A stretch of 64,000 nt of DNA. It comes from Escherichia phage vB_EcoM_SP1. Made by a program: the position numbers and the translations under genes. The notes beneath the pieces are model-generated. The model was not told the origin of the DNA. It worked only from the letters and a program-made list of their open reading frames with translations, and did not search any database. How positions within the stretch are numbered: the first letter of the stretch is position 1; every line of letters begins with the position of its first letter. Positions 3,604 to 41,867 of the stretch are shown one piece after another. The DNA is taken from sequence record MT682709.1; one strand, written 5' to 3'.

Positions 3604-3933
3604 ATGATTTATTGTATGAATATCGGTGATTCCGACATAAAAGAGATTAAACTGCACGGAAATCATCACGCTAATATTGTGTACTGTAATAAATTTGAGT
3701 TTGGTCACGAAAAACTTGGAGTTCTTTATTGCAATGATGTTATAGTCATAGATAAAAAGAAACTCGATGAACTTGACCGTGAGTCTTTAAATGAAAATGA
3801 TCGAATTTATTATGGTACTCTTAAAGTATATAACGCTTATCTTAGTGGTAAAAAGGAAAGTCTAAATGCAGAAAACGAATCCAGGTTTACAGAGACTATT
3901 TCAGATTCCGACATTTACCCTATCGAACAGTGA
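3604..3933 (+). CDS. hypothetical protein, 109 aa
   Basis: ORF with RBS AAGGAAAAAUU; overlaps predicted denB start by 68 nt so one of the two starts is uncertain. Confidence 0.4.
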   Translation: MIYCMNIGDSDIKEIKLHGNHHANIVYCNKFEFGHEKLGVLYCNDVIVIDKKKLDELDRESLNENDRIYYGTLKVYNAYLSGKKESLNAENESRFTETISDSDIYPIEQ

Positions 3934-4423
3934 CTTAACTAGTGAAATGAAGGTCAAAATTGCTGATACAGCAAGATACTCTTTAAAACAAAATCCTAAT
4001 CAGGATAAAGCAGAAGTCATCGAAAGATGCCGTATCGCTGTGTACGCAGAATTTTTTGTAGCAGACTGGCTGAGCGGGTATGTTAACAAAGGCCAAGAGG
4101 ATGTTAATGACCCGTATACATACGCATGGGATGTATTGGCACACCCAAGATACTGCGGGCTTCGTGTAGAAGTTAAGACACATCAAACTGACTCACGTTG
4201 GATTTCGGTAACAACCGGATGCAGCGGAGAGTATCCATACGGTTCTGGAATAAATCTAGGGCCCATTCTGAATCATCAGGTCGCTGACTGTATAATTATA
4301 TTCAACACTAAAGAAATTCATCCAGGTGTCATCCAGTACACTCCGAAGTTCATCGGTGATAGAGAAGACCTTCGTAAGGTTGTAAGAAAAAGCAACTACA
4401 ACGGATGGTATCTTTCCATTTAA
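3866..4423 (+). CDS. denB: endonuclease IV (dC-specific ssDNA endonuclease)
   Basis: 185 aa, matching T4 EndoIV length; synteny between rIIB and ndd. Confidence 0.7.
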   Translation: MQKTNPGLQRLFQIPTFTLSNSDLTSEMKVKIADTARYSLKQNPNQDKAEVIERCRIAVYAEFFVADWLSGYVNKGQEDVNDPYTYAWDVLAHPRYCGLRVEVKTHQTDSRWISVTTGCSGEYPYGSGINLGPILNHQVADCIIIFNTKEIHPGVIQYTPKFIGDREDLRKVVRKSNYNGWYLSI

Positions 4424-4438
4424 AAATTTCACAAGACA

Positions 4439-4470
4439 GTTTACATACCACAAGGACCGTGGTACTATAC
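4439..4470 (+). promoter_or_regulatory. T4-type early promoter (GTTTACA -35, TACTAT -10, 17-bp spacer)
   Basis: GTTTACA at 4439, TACTAT at 4463; conserved leader ACAACTATCAACTGATAC shared with promoters at 8300 and 24968. Confidence 0.5.
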
Positions 4471-4490
4471 AACTATCAACTGATACGGAT

Positions 4491-4709
4491 TTGGAGAATA
4501 AAATGTTTACTACAGCTGAATTAAAACGAGCAAAAGCTAAGAAAGGACAAGGAAAATATAAAGCTGAATTAGTTAAAGAACTTCAGTTTGCTGAGGCTGA
4601 ATTGAATTCAATGATTATTCAAAATGTTCCAGAAACTGAAATTGCTCTTAAGCGTATTGCGAATAAGTGTCTTCGTGATGCAATCGTCGATCTTTTAGCG
4701 GATTATTGA
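4491..4709 (+). CDS. hypothetical protein, 72 aa
   Basis: ORF downstream of early promoter, RBS GGAGAAUAAA. Confidence 0.55.
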   Translation: MENKMFTTAELKRAKAKKGQGKYKAELVKELQFAEAELNSMIIQNVPETEIALKRIANKCLRDAIVDLLADY

Positions 4710-4978
4710 GTAAAATGAAATTTAAATTTTATTACGCTAAACATAAAATAACTGATGAGTTTGTGTCAGTTGAATATTCTAGCGATGATGAAGGTATGAT
4801 TTATACTCGCTTGGGACTATCGCATTGGGAGTCTGATACGCCTTATTTTTCAACTCCCGAAGAAATTACACGCTTAGTTAATGGTCATATGAATGACCAC
4901 TGGGATGTAATTCTTTCAGATAGTCTTAAAGCGGCTATTAATAGTAATGAAATGAAAATCGCTGAGATTGAACTATGA
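4706..4978 (+). CDS. hypothetical protein, 90 aa
   Basis: ATGA start/stop overlap with upstream ORF. Confidence 0.55.
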   Translation: MSKMKFKFYYAKHKITDEFVSVEYSSDDEGMIYTRLGLSHWESDTPYFSTPEEITRLVNGHMNDHWDVILSDSLKAAINSNEMKIAEIEL

Positions 4979-5061
4979 GTTCATTATGGTGGTGTTTTGT
5001 TTGGTTAATTAGTATTCCATTAATTTGTTTAACATTTACTTTTGTGATGAGGTTATTATGA
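4975..5061 (+). CDS. tiny hydrophobic peptide, 28 aa (putative single-pass membrane peptide)
   Basis: ATGA-coupled to upstream ORF; sequence MSSLWWCFVWLISIPLICLTFTFVMRLL. Confidence 0.35.
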   Translation: MSSLWWCFVWLISIPLICLTFTFVMRLL

Positions 5062-5156
5062 AAATTTTGAATTCTATACTTATTGCTTGTGCATGGTGGG
5101 TTGCGCAAGTTTCGGCAGTAGTGATTGGTATTCACATTTATTACGAATATTTTTAA
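5058..5156 (+). CDS. tiny hydrophobic peptide, 32 aa
   Basis: ATGA-coupled; MKILNSILIACAWWVAQVSAVVIGIHIYYEYF. Confidence 0.4.
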   Translation: MKILNSILIACAWWVAQVSAVVIGIHIYYEYF

Positions 5157-5163
5157 AAAAGTT

Positions 5164-5218
5164 GTTTACAAGACTGTTCCTCTGTGGTATTATTATCCTA
5201 TCAACTACGGAGGAACAG
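5164..5218 (+). promoter_or_regulatory. early promoter with 9-bp inverted repeat bracketing the -10 (promoter-early stem-loop-like)
   Basis: GTTTACA at 5164, TATTAT at 5188; arms CTGTTCCTC 5174-5182 and GAGGAACAG 5210-5218. Confidence 0.4.
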
Positions 5219-5221
5219 AAA

Positions 5222-5335
5222 ATGAAAAAGATTGTTAAAGCTATATGGAATGTAGTTATAATACTAGTAGTTTTGAGTATATTCCCAATCGTTTTAATGA
5301 TTGATGTATTAAACGCTTACTTTGGATTTATGTGA
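5222..5335 (+). CDS. tiny hydrophobic peptide, 37 aa
   Basis: RBS GGAGGAACAGAAA then ATG; MKKIVKAIWNVVIILVVLSIFPIVLMIDVLNAYFGFM. Confidence 0.45.
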   Translation: MKKIVKAIWNVVIILVVLSIFPIVLMIDVLNAYFGFM

Positions 5336-5342
5336 GGAAAAT

Positions 5343-5540
5343 ATGAAGCGTAAACGCAGTGCTTTTACATTTATGGAATGGTTTTTCGATAATATTTTTC
5401 CGGCTTTATTCATTTTCATGTTGATTTTCGCCTTGGGTTCAGTTGTGGTTGGAATCTATTTGATGGCAGTTGTCGGAATGGATATTCACCAAAATGGTTT
5501 GAAATCTGTGGTTGAAACAATTTGGAATGGTGTAAAATAA
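5343..5540 (+). CDS. small membrane protein, 65 aa
   Basis: RBS GAGGAAAAU; basic N-terminus followed by long hydrophobic segment. Confidence 0.5.
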   Translation: MKRKRSAFTFMEWFFDNIFPALFIFMLIFALGSVVVGIYLMAVVGMDIHQNGLKSVVETIWNGVK

Positions 5541-5647
5541 TGAATTTACTAAGCATTTGGTTTTATATTCTTGTATTTTACATTGGTGCAAATTTCCCAT
5601 ATTGGATGGGATGGTCAACAACTGCATTTGGATTTTATACTCCCTGA
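5540..5647 (+). CDS. tiny hydrophobic peptide, 35 aa
   Basis: TAATG overlap with upstream ORF; aromatic-rich hydrophobic sequence. Confidence 0.4.
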   Translation: MNLLSIWFYILVFYIGANFPYWMGWSTTAFGFYTP

Positions 5648-5655
5648 GGTGAATT

Positions 5656-5871
5656 ATGAAAATTTTTAAAGATGTAAAGGTCGGTGAAATTTTTTGCTTA
5701 GATAATGGTGATCAGTTAATTCGTATTTCACCTCTTAAGAGCACTAGCGAGAAAATGACAGTTAACGCTACTTTAGCAAATAACAGTAATGAACGTTTCT
5801 GTATTGAAAATGATACTGAAACTTATACTGTAGAAGAATTCTGGGAATTAAGTGTCGACTGCGACGATTAA
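5656..5871 (+). CDS. hypothetical protein, 71 aa
   Basis: RBS GAGGUGAAUU; followed by hairpin GGCCGTATG-AATA-CATACGGCC. Confidence 0.55.
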   Translation: MKIFKDVKVGEIFCLDNGDQLIRISPLKSTSEKMTVNATLANNSNERFCIENDTETYTVEEFWELSVDCDD

Positions 5872-5930
5872 TTTATCGGCCGTATGAATACATACGGCCT
5901 TGGAGTAGAAAATAATTAGAGGAAATTAAC

Positions 5931-6386
5931 ATGAAATATATGACTGTTACTGATCTGAATAATGCAGGCGCAACTGTTATTGGTACAATCAAGGGCGGTG
6001 AATGGGTTTTTGGAACTCCGCATAAAGACATTTTGTCTAACCCTGGATTTTACTTTTTAGTGAGCAAATTTGGTGGTCCATTTGATAGTCCGTGTGTATC
6101 TGCACGATTTTATGTAGGTAATCAGCGTTCTAAGCAAGGATTCAGTGCAGTTCTAAGTCATATTCGCCAGCGTCGGTCTCAGCTTGCGCGTACTATTGCA
6201 AATAACAATGTTCCATACACAGTATTTTATCTACCTGCTTCTAAGATGAAACCTCTGACGACGGGATTTGGAAAAGGTCAGTTAGCTTTAGCGTTTACTC
6301 ATAATCATCATTCTGAGTATCAAACGCTTGAAGAAATGAATCGTATGTTGGCTGATAACTTTAAATTTGTTTTGCAGGCATATTAA
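5931..6386 (+). CDS. ndd: nucleoid disruption protein Ndd
   Basis: 151 aa as T4 Ndd; lies immediately upstream of stp. Confidence 0.8.
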
Positions 6387-6473: not shown

Positions 6474-6632
6474 ATGAATATCGCAAAATTATTAGGAGTT
6501 ATTTCATTTATTTGTTGGATAGTAGCATGTGTTTTAACTATCTGTATTGATGTCAGCAGCGTGTTTTCGCAAGCTTTAGCTCAGGGTATGTGTGCATATT
6601 TAACATTTGCGTTGTTATCTACTAATGATTAA
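6474..6632 (+). CDS. ac: small membrane protein, acriflavine-resistance gene ac-like
   Basis: 52-aa hydrophobic ORF between stp and gene 52 as in T4. Confidence 0.6.
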   Translation: MNIAKLLGVISFICWIVACVLTICIDVSSVFSQALAQGMCAYLTFALLSTND

Positions 6633-6765
6633 GAAAATCTTGGGCTATTCATTAGCCCTTGCTACTTTATTGGTAGCGCTATATTATGGAGTAATGTTCG
6701 GATTAATTCAAGTCGTGCTTTTCATTTCTGATGTTATTATGGCACTACATTCACTAGTATGGTAA
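6625..6765 (+). CDS. small hydrophobic protein, 46 aa (52.1-like)
   Basis: ORF overlapping ac stop, hydrophobic, immediately upstream of gene 52. Confidence 0.45.
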   Translation: MIKKILGYSLALATLLVALYYGVMFGLIQVVLFISDVIMALHSLVW

Positions 6766-6769
6766 ATTT

Positions 6770-8098
6770 ATGCAACTGAATAATCGCGATTTAAAAAGTA
6801 TCATTGATAATGAAGCACTGGCTTATGCTATGTACACGGTTGAAAATCGTGCTATTCCAAATATGATTGATGGATTTAAGCCAGTTCAACGATTTGTTAT
6901 TGCTCGAGCTCTTGATTTGGCGCGAGGAAATAAAGATAAGTTTCACAAGCTCGCTTCTATTGCAGGTGGTGTAGCTGACCTTGGATATCATCATGGTGAA
7001 AACTCTGCGCAAGACGCGGGGGCTTTGATGGCTAACACTTGGAATAATAACTTTCCTTTGTTAGATGGTCAAGGAAACTTTGGTTCTCGTACCGTTCAAA
7101 AAGCAGCAGCAAGTCGTTATATTTTTGCTCGTGTAAGTAAAAATTTCTATAACGTATATAAAGATACTGAATATGCTCCGGTACATCAAGATAAAGAACA
7201 CATTCCGCCTGCTTTCTATTTGCCTATTATTCCTACTGTTCTTCTTAATGGTGTTTCCGGTATTGCAACTGGTTATGCAACTTACATTCTTCCTCATAGT
7301 GTTTCTTCTGTCAAGAAAGCTGTACTACAAGCTCTTCAAGGAAAGAAAGTAACTAAACCGAAGGTAGAATTCCCAGAATTTCGCGGTGAAGTCGTTGAAA
7401 TTGACGGTCAATATGAAATTCGTGGAACGTACAAGTTTACTTCACGAACTCAAATGAATATCACTGAGATTCCGTATAAGTATGATCGTGAAACTTATGT
7501 GAGTAAAATCTTAGACCCGCTTGAAGATAAAGGCTTCATTACGTGGGATGATGCTTGTGGTGAGCATGGTTTTGGCTTTAAAATTAAATTCCGCAAAGAA
7601 TACTCTTTGAGTGATAACGAAGAAGAACGCCATGCAAAAATTATGAAAGACTTTGGGTTGATTGAGCGTCGTTCCCAAAATATTACAGTCATCAACGAGA
7701 AAGGAAAGTTACAAGTTTACGATAACGTAGTTGATTTAATTAAAGACTTCGTTGAAGTTCGTAAAACTTATGTCCAAAAGCGAATTGATAACAAAATCAA
7801 AGAAACTGAATCAGCATTTCGTTTAGCCTTTGCCAAGGCACATTTCATTAAGAAAGTAATTTCAGGTGAAATTGTTGTGCAGGGTAAAACTCGCAAAGAA
7901 CTGACCGAAGAACTTTCTAAAATTGAGATGTATTCTTCTTATGTCGATAAACTAGTCGGAATGAATATTTTTCATATGACTTCCGACGAAGCAAAGAAAC
8001 TTGCTGAAGAAGCTAAAGCTAAGAAAGAAGAAAACGAATATTGGAAAACTACTGATGTAGTTACCGAATACACCAAAGATTTAGAGGAAATCAAATGA
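6770..8098 (+). CDS. 52: DNA topoisomerase II medium subunit gp52
   Basis: 442 aa as T4 gp52; GyrA-like N-terminus with PVQRFV motif and TGYAT. Confidence 0.95.
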   Translation: MQLNNRDLKSIIDNEALAYAMYTVENRAIPNMIDGFKPVQRFVIARALDLARGNKDKFHKLASIAGGVADLGYHHGENSAQDAGALMANTWNNNFPLLDGQGNFGSRTVQKAAASRYIFARVSKNFYNVYKDTEYAPVHQDKEHIPPAFYLPIIPTVLLNGVSGIATGYATYILPHSVSSVKKAVLQALQGKKVTKPKVEFPEFRGEVVEIDGQYEIRGTYKFTSRTQMNITEIPYKYDRETYVSKILDPLEDKGFITWDDACGEHGFGFKIKFRKEYSLSDNEEERHAKIMKDFGLIERRSQNITVINEKGKLQVYDNVVDLIKDFVEVRKTYVQKRIDNKIKETESAFRLAFAKAHFIKKVISGEIVVQGKTRKELTEELSKIEMYSSYVDKLVGMNIFHMTSDEAKKLAEEAKAKKEENEYWKTTDVVTEYTKDLEEIK

Positions 8099-8244
8099 GT
8101 CCATTCATTGGTATTACAAGCGCGGCGTTAGTATCTGGTAGCATTTTACTGGCGGGGTTAGGTGTTGTTCCAGCCGTAGCAGGAGGTCTTCTTGCGTTCG
8201 GCATTCAACGTGTTATCATGACAGTTATCACAGTCATGCAGTAA
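8095..8244 (+). CDS. small hydrophobic protein, 49 aa
   Basis: ATGA overlap with gene 52 stop; Gly/Ala-rich hydrophobic sequence. Confidence 0.4.
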   Translation: MSPFIGITSAALVSGSILLAGLGVVPAVAGGLLAFGIQRVIMTVITVMQ

Positions 8245-25697: not shown

Positions 25698-25726
25698 TTT
25701 ACAGTAGGGTAGTAGTGTGATACTAT
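25697..25726 (+). promoter_or_regulatory. early promoter with imperfect inverted repeat around -10
   Basis: GTTTACA at 25697, TACTAT at 25721. Confidence 0.45.
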
Positions 25727-25751
25727 TACCCTATCAACTAAGGAGAATAAA

Positions 25752-25994
25752 ATGAGATTACAACGCCAGAGCATTAAAGATTCAGAAGTTAGAGGTAAAT
25801 GGTATTTTAATATCATAGGTAAAGATTCTGAACTTGTTGAAAAAGCTGAACATCTTTTACGTGACGTGGGATGGGAAGATGAATGCGATGGATGCCCTCT
25901 TTATGAGGATGGAGAAAGCGCAGGATTCTGGATTTACCACTCTGACGTTGAACAGTTTAAAGCTGATTGGAAAAGTGTGAAAAAGTCTGTTTAA
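25752..25994 (+). CDS. hypothetical protein, 80 aa
   Basis: ORF with RBS AGGAGAAUAAA. Confidence 0.55.
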   Translation: MRLQRQSIKDSEVRGKWYFNIIGKDSELVEKAEHLLRDVGWEDECDGCPLYEDGESAGFWIYHSDVEQFKADWKSVKKSV

Positions 25995-37785: not shown

Positions 37786-37824
37786 GTTTACTTTACGGTA
37801 GAGTTGTGATATTATAGCTCTACC
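37786..37824 (+). promoter_or_regulatory. early promoter with 7-bp inverted repeat bracketing the -10
   Basis: GTTTAC at 37786, TATTAT at 37810; arms GGTAGAG 37797-37803 and CTCTACC 37818-37824. Confidence 0.45.
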
Positions 37825-37845
37825 AAAACAAATGAGGAAATTGAA

Positions 37846-38373
37846 ATGAGCGAATGGTTTGAAGAAGATAAGGTTTATCGCTTTAAAGCTGGATATAAAG
37901 ATATTTTTAATGAAACTTGCGGGGCTAATAAACGAATTGCCCAGTTTATTGGGGAAAATTCATTTAAAGTAAAAATAGATCCTGCGAAAAATGTTATTAG
38001 CATTAAACGCGAAATTGATGATTGTTGGTATAAAGCTGTTGATGTAATGGGCGAATCTTATAAAGTTAGCCCGTTATTTTCAATTGCTTATATGTTAGAA
38101 TATTCTTTTTTCGAAGAAGTTCAAAAAGATGATTCTGTCAGTAAATTTGAAATTAAAACTGATAAAGAAATTAAGTGGAAAGTAGTAGGTATTACTGGTT
38201 GTATGTTTTATATCTATGCTCAAACTGATACGAAGGAAGAAGCTAAAAAGAAAGCTCTAGAATATCTTGAAGAGTATGAAGAAGGTCCGGTAATGATTAC
38301 TCAAGATGCTGAATTAGTTTCTGTCAAATTAGTTAAAAACGTTGAAAGTAAGGAGCTGGGATCAACATGCTAA
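37846..38373 (+). CDS. hypothetical protein, 175 aa
   Basis: ORF with RBS AUGAGGAAAUUGAA. Confidence 0.55.
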   Translation: MSEWFEEDKVYRFKAGYKDIFNETCGANKRIAQFIGENSFKVKIDPAKNVISIKREIDDCWYKAVDVMGESYKVSPLFSIAYMLEYSFFEEVQKDDSVSKFEIKTDKEIKWKVVGITGCMFYIYAQTDTKEEAKKKALEYLEEYEEGPVMITQDAELVSVKLVKNVESKELGSTC

Positions 38374-41477: not shown

Positions 41478-41510
41478 GTTTACAGTATGGTTCCTTTGTG
41501 ATAGTATTAT
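41478..41510 (+). promoter_or_regulatory. early promoter
   Basis: GTTTACA at 41478, TAGTAT/TATTAT -10; TTTGTG/CACAAA inverted repeat around -10. Confidence 0.45.
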
Positions 41511-41534
41511 CTTACACAAACAAAGGAGAATAAA

Positions 41535-41867
41535 ATGAAAACGATTAATCTGAACGCTGCAGTTAAAACTAAATGCTTCAATGGTAAATATGATGAAACT
41601 ATGTGGTTCTTAATGGCAGTTGAAGGTGATATTATTGAAGTAGAAACAACAGAAGGTATGGGAACAGATTTCACCTTTACAATTCAAGTTCATAATTTCT
41701 TTACTGGTTGGATTTATGAATTGAATACAGTAATCGTTGGAAAAATTGAACAAAATGAATTAGGTGAATGGTATTATGTTACAGCTCGCCAACGTGCCGA
41801 ACGCTTAATTGAGAAGATGAAAAAAGTTGGTAAACTTGACATGCAGCATTGGAAAGTAGTAAAATAA
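41535..41867 (+). CDS. hypothetical protein, 110 aa
   Basis: ORF with RBS AAGGAGAAUAAA. Confidence 0.55.
   Translation: MKTINLNAAVKTKCFNGKYDETMWFLMAVEGDIIEVETTEGMGTDFTFTIQVHNFFTGWIYELNTVIVGKIEQNELGEWYYVTARQRAERLIEKMKKVGKLDMQHWKVVK

Follow-up and report, generated by a model that had tools for sequence, protein, structure and literature searches.

What are five very small, hydrophobic open reading frames (ORFs) between denB and ndd doing in a T4-like phage, and are they genes at all? We examined this locus in Escherichia phage vB_EcoM_SP1 (sequence record MT682709.1), using a stretch of 64,000 nucleotides (nt) that we call the window and to which all positions refer. The five ORFs, of 28 to 65 amino acids (aa) each, lie on the + strand at 4975 to 5647, as an initial annotation made from the sequence alone had described. 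The best overall explanation, to which we give a probability of roughly 0.6, is that they are orthologues of the T4 ndd.x genes, that they are expressed as two early units, that the stem-loop of a PeSL (promoter-early stem-loop) cassette masks a ribosome-binding site in part of the transcripts, and that the products are accessory membrane microproteins. The feature as such is already known, being composed of annotated T4 genes and a published PeSL cassette.

The five ORFs are almost certainly the orthologues of T4 ndd.6, ndd.5, ndd.4, ndd.3/ndd.2a, and ndd.2, and they are listed here under these names.

4975..5061, + strand: ndd.6 orthologue, 28 aa, one predicted transmembrane helix (MSSLWWCFVWLISIPLICLTFTFVMRLL); phrog_8851, E = 3e-17.
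5058..5156, + strand: ndd.5 orthologue, 32 aa, one predicted transmembrane helix; phrog_5011, E = 1.5e-25.
5222..5335, + strand: ndd.4 orthologue, 37 aa; phrog_3098, E = 3e-21.
5343..5540, + strand: DUF7248 gene (T4 "ndd.3" and "ndd.2a" as one), 65 aa; phrog_2401 and Pfam PF23906.
5540..5647, + strand: ndd.2 orthologue, 35 aa, its start overlapping the preceding stop (TAATG); phrog_4135, E = 4e-23.

T4 ndd.2 to ndd.6 occupy the same position between denB and ndd, in the same order and with the same lengths; they share 91 to 96% amino acid identity with the window peptides (ndd.6, 96%; ndd.5, 93%; ndd.4, 91%; ndd.2, 91%) and belong to the same PHROGs (8851, 5011, 3098, 2401, and 4135). The PHROG matches to ndd.6, ndd.5, ndd.4, and ndd.2 each span the whole peptide. 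The 65-aa protein is 100% identical to T4 across the 40-residue ndd.2a part, and it matched Pfam DUF7248 (PF23906) with 73.4 bits over residues 5 to 63 of 65, where the gathering cutoff is 27. Pfam gave zero matches for the four smaller peptides and NCBIfam zero for all five; the DUF7248 protein, the only peptide compared with PDB sequences, had zero match there.

Each peptide has one strongly hydrophobic stretch (best 19-residue Kyte-Doolittle mean, 1.55 to 3.05), in line with the single predicted helix of the initial annotation, and the described richness in Trp, Ile, and Phe was likewise found: these residues make up 5.6, 12.7, and 10.2% of the five peptides versus 1.4, 7.4, and 4.3% of the window's long ORFs, an enrichment of 4-fold, 1.7-fold, and 2.4-fold, respectively. 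Around this common build the peptides differ. The ndd.4 product has a basic N terminus, one transmembrane helix, an invariant Asp past the helix, and an aromatic tail; the DUF7248 protein has a basic N terminus, one transmembrane helix, and a conserved C-terminal GLKSVVExIWNG; and ndd.2 has zero charged and 12 aromatic residues and the motif GxNxxYWxG. Residues 8 to 11 of ndd.5 form an invariant lipobox-like LIAC, which may explain the "outer membrane protein" label of ndd.5 in old annotations. We judged ndd.5 unlikely to be a lipoprotein, since only 10 residues precede the Cys, too short for a signal.

Hydrophobicity by itself says little here. The AT-rich window holds 27 ORFs of 25 to 70 aa whose hydrophobic stretch is comparable, mostly located within other genes, so it is conservation, and not hydrophobicity, that sets the five beyond chance. 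We measured the ratio of nonsynonymous to synonymous substitution rates (dN/dS) and frame integrity in an alignment of 20 Tequatrovirus genomes. In the annotated frame, dN/dS was 0.19 for ndd.6, 0.08 for ndd.5, 0.08 for the DUF7248 gene, and 0.11 for ndd.2, and in the other two frames of these four ORFs it was about 0.9 or above. For ndd.4 the ratio is meaningless within the genus (7 variable sites of 111). Across seven divergent lineages, however, its synonymous differences (pS) ranged from 0.24 to 0.94, near saturation, and its nonsynonymous differences (pN) from 0.05 to 0.27, with a mean ratio of 0.30, while both alternative frames are interrupted by stops. Conservation across T-even genomes had been named in the initial annotation as a check, and stop codons or frameshifts scattered through close relatives as a sign against its reading. 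What we found was conservation with frame-specific selection and, among the 100 ORF copies (20 genomes by five ORFs), only three isolated frameshifts. One is in the 65-aa gene of the T4 RefSeq and is absent from two modern T4 assemblies. The other two are a 2-nt insertion at the end of ndd.6 in an IMG/VR contig (L004, IMG/VR 2974742932; L numbers are our identifiers for loci) and, in phage slur11 (L043), a 1-nt insertion midway through ndd.2; both are sequencing errors or recent inactivations.

A second set consisted of 36 divergent T4-like loci retrieved through Ndd (46 to 94% identity). The interval between denB and ndd ranges there from about 200 to 2,200 bp and from 1 to about 9 ORFs, and small hydrophobic ORFs of the same families are kept in it across the set. 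Homologues of ndd.4, DUF7248, ndd.2, and ndd.6 lie between denB and ndd even where Ndd is only 46 to 65% identical. In the family alignments, invariant polar or aromatic residues flank the helix in homologues of divergent phages, the ndd.6 family motif WCxIWxxxIPxIC is retained, and motifs are conserved at 25 to 60% amino acid identity across genera while synonymous sites are saturated. These comparisons indicate that the five ORFs are genuine genes under purifying selection. By the same comparisons, ndd.4 is the widely conserved core of the locus, and module shuffling appears to bring in and remove the others. Nearly all lineages have an ndd.4 homologue, which in most of the 36 loci lies between denB and ndd and in one (L031) is the sole gene there; ndd.5 was confined to Tequatrovirus within the loci that we examined. 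We dropped the idea that ndd.4 and DUF7248 form an obligate pair, as in several lineages the gene directly after ndd.4 is a homologue of ndd.1 or ndd.2, or no gene follows it.

By tblastn, 595 phage records contain ndd.4 and 494 contain the 65-aa protein; the phages concerned all infect Enterobacterales. A HMMER search of the 65-aa protein against 1.84 billion representative sequences gave five matches at E <= 0.001, two of which are long, repetitive, and probably spurious; the DUF7248 family is thus narrow, with no lead outside T4-like phages. A close-homologue protein search with the same protein returned close relatives only.

Two side observations concern the gene that follows ndd.4. A near-identical junction, (T)TCTGAGGAAAATATTATG, in which a stop overlaps a Shine-Dalgarno (SD) sequence and a start follows, is present at 5333 to 5345 and at 5645 to 5658, and across loci L007 to L032 it precedes differing genes (DUF7248, ndd.2-like, ndd.1-like, and others). 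It is here that the downstream neighbour of ndd.4 switches from one lineage to another, and the site has the look of a second hotspot of recombination, in addition to the PeSLs. In a distant T4-like contig (L038, 2346 to 2759), a 137-aa ORF with a typical lipoprotein signal (…LIGC) comes after an ndd.4-like gene and replaces the small peptides, another envelope-directed product at the same locus.

Comparison with T4 also bears on how these genes are annotated. The T4 RefSeq, NC_000866 (T4p275 to T4p270), lists ndd.6 (28 aa), ndd.5 (32 aa), ndd.4 (42 aa), ndd.3 (26 aa), ndd.2a (40 aa), and ndd.2 (36 aa), splitting in two the 65-aa gene that is intact in the window. At the start of this gene (window 5343 to 5350), NC_000866 reads ATGAACGTAAACGC, whereas the window, 18 other Tequatrovirus genomes, and the T4 assemblies OZ035787.1 and OZ209057.1 read ATGAAGCGTAAACGC. 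The G missing from the RefSeq sits after ATGAA, and its absence yields the "ndd.3" frame plus a truncated "ndd.2a" call. Judged from these sequences, T4 ndd.3 and ndd.2a are a single DUF7248 gene of 65 aa, and the split probably stems from a sequencing error in the reference or a mutation specific to one stock; ndd.3 is a PHROG singleton in one supplementary table (PMC11879866, supplementary file 15). The 42-aa call of T4 ndd.4, compared with window positions 5209 to 5224, has a different origin: a C-to-T change makes an ATG five codons upstream, inside the SD and stem, and the start conserved in all relatives gives 36 to 41 aa. Where the T4 record assigns a location ("outer membrane", "periplasmic"), it does so in the form of a prediction ("hypothetical predicted ..."). 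Among 13 related records that we surveyed, all five ORFs are listed only in AdolfPortmann and T4 (T4 with one split) and the others omit one to four, which agrees with the remark of the initial annotation that most of these ORFs fall below normal gene-calling cutoffs.

How the genes are grouped and expressed is the next question, and it involves the following features besides the five ORFs.

4440..4468, + strand: upstream early-type promoter, TTTACA-17-TACTAT with TG, from the promoter scan.
4503..4709, + strand: 68-aa soluble ORF, phrog_4535, with no T4 counterpart; context only, outside the five.
4715..4978, + strand: 87-aa soluble ORF, phrog_2390, its stop overlapping the ndd.6 start (ATGA).
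5165..5193, + strand: internal early-type promoter, TTTACA-17-TATTAT with TG and an A/T tract upstream; the promoter part of the PeSL cassette.
5174..5218, + strand: stem-loop from RNA folding (inverted repeat I4), with 15-bp arms (5174-5188 and 5204-5218) and a 15-nt loop.
5656..5871, + strand: ndd.1 orthologue, 71 aa, soluble; last cistron of the second coupled group.

The initial annotation took the five ORFs for one translationally coupled string. Coupling is apparent within two groups, but a 65-nt promoter-bearing gap parts ndd.5 from ndd.4 and breaks the chain. The first group comprises the 87-aa ORF, ndd.6, and ndd.5, joined by ATGA overlaps (the ndd.5 start overlaps the ndd.6 stop). 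The second comprises ndd.4, DUF7248, ndd.2, and ndd.1, joined by a 7-nt gap in which the SD overlaps the stop, a TAATG overlap, and an 8-nt gap. In T4, which lacks the 68-aa and 87-aa soluble ORFs upstream of ndd.6, a deletion (window 4491 to 4978) fuses the start codon of the first of these ORFs to the last eight codons of the 87-aa ORF. What is left is a mini-ORF, MKIAEIEL, which is not annotated but still has its stop overlapping the start of ndd.6, and this suggests that ndd.6 translation depends on coupling. T4 ndd.1 is annotated in the same place, also with 71 aa.

The upstream promoter fits the early consensus TTTACW-N17-TAYWAT given for T4 and PST (PMC4122927), and in Yersinia phage fPS-65 the homologous position is annotated "predicted early promoter". 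The internal promoter, which the initial annotation had also placed here, has 10 of 12 matches, tied for the best in the scanned 3.1-kb stretch, and is preceded by TTTTTAAAAAAG. Transcription is predicted to start near A5200, 7 nt past the -10 element. The 9-bp palindrome reported with this promoter is real in its nine perfect base pairs (5174-5182 and 5210-5218) but is larger than described, extending to a 15-bp stem. The folding energy of this stem-loop is -23.2 kcal/mol (z = -4.4), and 0 of 200 shuffled sequences were equally stable. Its 5' arm includes the stretch CTGTTCCTC (an example of an altered form is GACAAGGAG), and its loop holds most of the -10 hexamer. The 3' arm, ACUACGGAGGAACAG, contains the ndd.4 SD, GGAGG (5209 to 5213), with the ATG at 5222. 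In the predicted fold, 11 nucleotides of the SD region pair with nucleotides upstream of the predicted transcription start. That start is 12 nt beyond the 5' arm, and the predicted RNA from the internal promoter, without the 5' arm, had no significant fold (z = -0.65).

Both promoter and stem recur in relatives. The internal promoter is conserved in the 20 Tequatrovirus genomes, and a promoter-like sequence precedes every ndd.4 homologue examined in divergent phages, although this was partly read by eye: a stricter pattern scan matched about two-thirds of the divergent ndd.4 promoters, and the missed ones were read by eye. The architecture, with the 5' arm in the spacer or over the -10 element and the 3' arm on the SD, recurs with different arm sequences (for example, CAUCUCCAUUAG/CUAAUGGAGAUG, CUCCGUUAG/CUAACGGAG, UUGUUCUUCGG/CUGGAGAACAA, and AGUACUCCU/AGGAGUACU) in Tequatrovirus, L007, L009/L013, L015, L021, L029, and L031; in L038 the arm adjoins the SD. 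The all-lineage alignment of promoter and stem was out of register; pairs were therefore counted in one alignable subgroup only, and other lineages were assessed by individual folds. In the subgroup, 95.8% of cells were paired, against 28 to 54% when the partner was slid by 1 to 3 columns, and two pairs were changed on both sides (A-U to G-C and U-A to G-C). T4 keeps the stem despite two changes, a C-to-U giving G.U and a U-to-C giving G-C. A search of Rfam gave nothing relevant.

The segment from about 5150 to 5224 (A/T tract, promoter, stem-loop, GGAGG, and ATG) has the architecture of the published PeSL cassettes (Arbiol et al., 2010, PMC2839356; Comeau et al., 2014, PMC4122927), in which an A/T tract accompanies a sigma-70-like promoter and a stem-loop lies between the -35 and -10 elements or over the -10. 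It has the promoter consensus with an A/T tract, the placement of the stem-loop, an SD and start at the 3' end, and a hyperplastic, indel-flanked site. The exchange of ndd.4/.5 between T4 and PST has been shown (PMC4122927, Fig. 6A). The authors of the PeSL work regarded the stem-loop as a transcription attenuator and recombination site, and the word "translation" is absent from the 2010 text (PMC2839356). The case at ndd.4 differs from that account in that the 3' arm is the SD itself, without a U-tract after the stem.

Related structures occur elsewhere. In T4, the ndd.4 leader recurs upstream of nrdC.8 (off-target column of the guide table, PMC11879866, supplementary file 15). The window has more early-type promoters with stem-loops around the -10 element, at 41479 to 41537, 25698 to 25755, and 37787 to 37850 (z = -3.5 to -3.9); the 3' arm of the one at 41479 contains the SD (AAGGAG) of a downstream 110-aa ORF (41535 to 41867).

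We propose that the locus is expressed as two early units. The 4440 promoter would drive the two soluble ORFs, ndd.6, and ndd.5, and the PeSL cassette at 5165 to 5221 would drive ndd.4, DUF7248, ndd.2, and ndd.1. The stem-loop would pair the promoter spacer with the ndd.4 SD, so that read-through RNA from upstream would fold and hide the ribosome-binding site of ndd.4, while transcripts from the cassette's own promoter, starting near 5200 without the 5' arm, would be translated. Masking in read-through transcripts is what we infer from the sequence and add to the published account. It has precedents in T4, where promoter-embedded hairpins mask the ribosome-binding sites of e, soc, 49, and I-TevI (PMC3014915, section 29): there too the SD lies in a helix whose 5' strand is upstream of the internal start, and the long RNA is masked and the short one open, as predicted here. 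A further element may be RegB. The SD of the first cistron after each early promoter contains GGAG, and internal cistrons have GAGG; an exposed GGAG is a RegB target, and secondary structure protects against RegB (PMC3014915). RegB cleavage of the exposed GGAG would sharpen a brief pulse of expression. The stronger form of the proposal, that the PeSL stem-loop is primarily a translational insulator, with ndd.4 translated only from its own-promoter RNA in a brief pulse right after infection that RegB cleavage helps to end, is possible but doubtful. Such a role could extend to the 41479 stem-loop and to others in T4-like genomes.

Several findings weigh against this picture of the locus. At e, soc, 49, and I-TevI, temporal control comes from a late internal promoter combined with masked RNAs of the early or middle class, whereas the 4440 and 5165 promoters are both early-type, so the temporal logic of e/soc/49 is not directly transferable. 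The stems around the -10 elements at 25698 and 37787 do not reach an SD, which means that selection may act on the stem-loop itself and not on SD masking; the stem of L016/L017 stops 5 to 6 nt short of the SD, and L025 and L028 have a weak structure. DUF7248 does not always adjoin ndd.4, so the peptides need not act together. The only proteomic survey (PMC9697503) detected none of the five peptides, and a null knock-down phenotype, described below, fits an accessory role but equally a very minor one.

The stem-loop could instead act on transcription or DNA, attenuating upstream transcripts and serving as a recombination patch, with the SD overlap incidental. This is a serious contender, though in our estimate it falls somewhat short of even odds, and it is compatible with masking. 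In published work, expression of a lacZ transcriptional reporter placed behind a PeSL stem-loop was lowered by as much as with the rrnB T1 terminator, and PeSLs were found to flank indels and to give rise to excised mini-circles (PMC2839356). The exchange of ndd.4/.5 seen with T4 and PST (PMC4122927) points the same way, as do the indels at cassettes (T4 lacks two ORFs past the 4440 promoter, with the junction at the start codon), the stems that stop short of the SD at 25698, at 37787, and in L016/L017, and the repeated ndd.4 leader upstream of nrdC.8. On the other hand, the stem at 5174 to 5218 is followed by AGAAAAUGAAAAAG, without a U-tract, and is therefore not a canonical intrinsic terminator. 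The 3' arm also covers the SD GGAG in roughly 9 of 12 lineages and the arms covary, which a terminator or a recombination patch would not require.

Published T4 data describe expression and dispensability. A time-resolved study classed the RNAs of ndd.2, ndd.2a, ndd.3, ndd.4, ndd.5, and ndd.6 as "early" (PMC9697503). Its proteomics detected Ndd and Ndd.1 as early proteins (supplementary files 4 and 6) and left the ndd.2 to ndd.6 proteins undetected; P39249, the accession listed for ndd.4, is cited there as too small for liquid chromatography-mass spectrometry. In a genome-wide CRISPRi-ART knock-down with dCas13d, ndd, ndd.1 to ndd.6, stp, ac, and denB were each scored "Not Fit", the class of genes that make no measurable contribution to fitness on the laboratory host (PMC11879866, supplementary file 15). 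Our literature search found no paper assigning a function to these genes, and only the PeSL paper names them in its main text.

As a tentative functional model, which we hold at rather less than even odds, the products would be accessory modulators of host envelope or membrane proteins. They would insert into the host inner membrane as single-pass microproteins, with the N terminus of ndd.4, ndd.5, and the DUF7248 protein inside according to the positive-inside rule, and would modulate host envelope or membrane proteins or membrane-bound defences via specific contacts. Such contacts are suggested by the invariant polar and aromatic positions and by the conserved, predicted periplasmic tail of the DUF7248 protein. 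An accessory, host-dependent role, in which the peptides would matter only in particular hosts or conditions, is in keeping with the hyperplastic, shuffled locus. In size range and single-helix build, the peptides are like the bacterial regulators AcrZ and MgrB and the type I toxins Hok and TisB. The analogy would be purely functional, as NCBIfam (five peptides) and PDB sequences (DUF7248 protein only) gave no sequence relationship.

Other functions have been weighed against this model, among them superinfection exclusion and membrane depolarisation, which the initial annotation had put forward alongside inhibition of host membrane proteins. The peptides might contribute to superinfection exclusion, or help to reseal the envelope once the DNA has been injected, which we consider unlikely. 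The T4 exclusion functions Imm and Sp are small early membrane proteins, and ndd.2 to ndd.6 resemble them in early transcription and in being predicted membrane peptides, but Imm and Sp already account for the known T4 exclusion phenotypes. Moreover, the PHROG families of the ndd.x peptides carry no such annotation, and the pooled knock-down (PMC11879866) had zero effect on fitness, though that screen would not measure exclusion. Membrane-damaging peptides, type I toxin-like or holin-like, that depolarise the inner membrane and shut off the host would suit products so short and so hydrophobic, above all the uncharged and aromatic-rich ndd.2. Toxins of the Hok/TisB type share this size range, yet early collapse of the proton-motive force would harm T4 development, and the family-specific polar and aromatic motifs outside the helix point to specific contacts and not to bulk damage. 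With the absence of a knock-down effect on fitness (PMC11879866), zero toxin matches in NCBIfam for the five peptides, and zero PDB match for the DUF7248 protein, we find this reading quite improbable.

We see just as little likelihood that ndd.4, with or without its neighbours, partners Ndd and/or DenB, for example, as a membrane tether for the nucleoid that Ndd moves to the periphery. The synteny is tight, with ndd.4 between denB and ndd in most of the 36 loci and alone there in L031, the early transcription unit is common to ndd.4 and ndd, and the T4 record describes Ndd with the words "binds host HU protein and host DNA to the membrane", even though Ndd itself lacks a hydrophobic segment. 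Against this, ndd is present without ndd.4 in L022/L023 and L033/L034, and in a hyperplastic region adjacency may reflect only a shared early, non-essential status. Cloned ndd alone, moreover, disrupts the nucleoid in E. coli. Finally, the ORFs might not function as proteins, being chance AT-rich frames or frames translated only for coupling or mRNA stability. The 27 chance hydrophobic ORFs of the window, the nondetection by mass spectrometry (PMC9697503), and the null knock-down (PMC11879866) would all be expected in that case, and the eight-codon T4 remnant overlapping the ndd.6 start shows that coupling as such is maintained. Frame-specific purifying selection, the rarity of frameshifts (3 per 100 ORF copies), and motifs conserved across genera despite saturated synonymous sites are difficult to reconcile with it, and the comparative data have largely refuted this reading already, leaving it a very slim chance.

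The wider locus fits the picture of a T4-like early region. The window is Tequatrovirus DNA; positions 4400 to 5950 match 507 phage records (in 413 cases the match spans 80% or more of the length), and the best match is Escherichia phage vB_EcoM_SYGD1 (97.7%). The matching records are nearly all Tequatrovirus, with Escherichia, Shigella, Yersinia, and Salmonella as hosts. The order on the + strand is denB, the two soluble ORFs, the five small ORFs, ndd.1, ndd, stp, ac, 52.1, and gene 52, and the locus is the classical non-essential, hyperplastic early region of T4, from rIIB/denB to ndd/gene 52. Three further features complete the annotation.

3866..4423, + strand: denB, 185 aa, the upstream flank.
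5878..5899, + strand: GC-rich 9-bp hairpin, GGCCGUAUG-AAUA-CAUACGGCC (arms GGCCGTATG/CATACGGCC), without a U-tract, between ndd.1 and ndd.
5931..6386, + strand: ndd, 151 aa, the downstream flank.

The hairpin at 5878 to 5899 has a folding energy of -17.4 kcal/mol in a folded stretch of 76 nt (z = -3.1); it may be an attenuator, a processing site, or an mRNA-stabilising element. Further downstream, the same strand carries more small hydrophobic ORFs: ac (52 aa, 6474 to 6632), 52.1 (46 aa, 6625 to 6765), and, directly after gene 52, a Gly/Ala-rich hydrophobic ORF of 49 aa (8095 to 8244). Together with the five, this makes at least eight predicted membrane peptides in 3.3 kb. Ac and gp52.1 are, like the five, small, early, and non-essential, with one or two hydrophobic helices, and lie a few hundred bases downstream, but they belong to other families, and Ac has an acridine-sensitivity phenotype according to the T4 record.

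About one in three T4 proteins lacks an assigned function (PMC9697503), and the smallest of them escape gene callers and mass spectrometry alike. Our analysis does not reveal a new kind of system. It documents purifying selection on ndd.2 to ndd.6, identifies ndd.4 as the conserved core, corrects the T4 annotation, and gives a testable model for the gating of ndd.4 translation by a PeSL. If the stronger, insulator form of that model is true, the published "promoter-terminator" motif would become a promoter-coupled translation switch, and ndd.4 would be singled out as a dose-sensitive immediate-early effector. The genes ndd.2 to ndd.6 are reasonable targets for conditional-essentiality screens in natural hosts and with defence systems.

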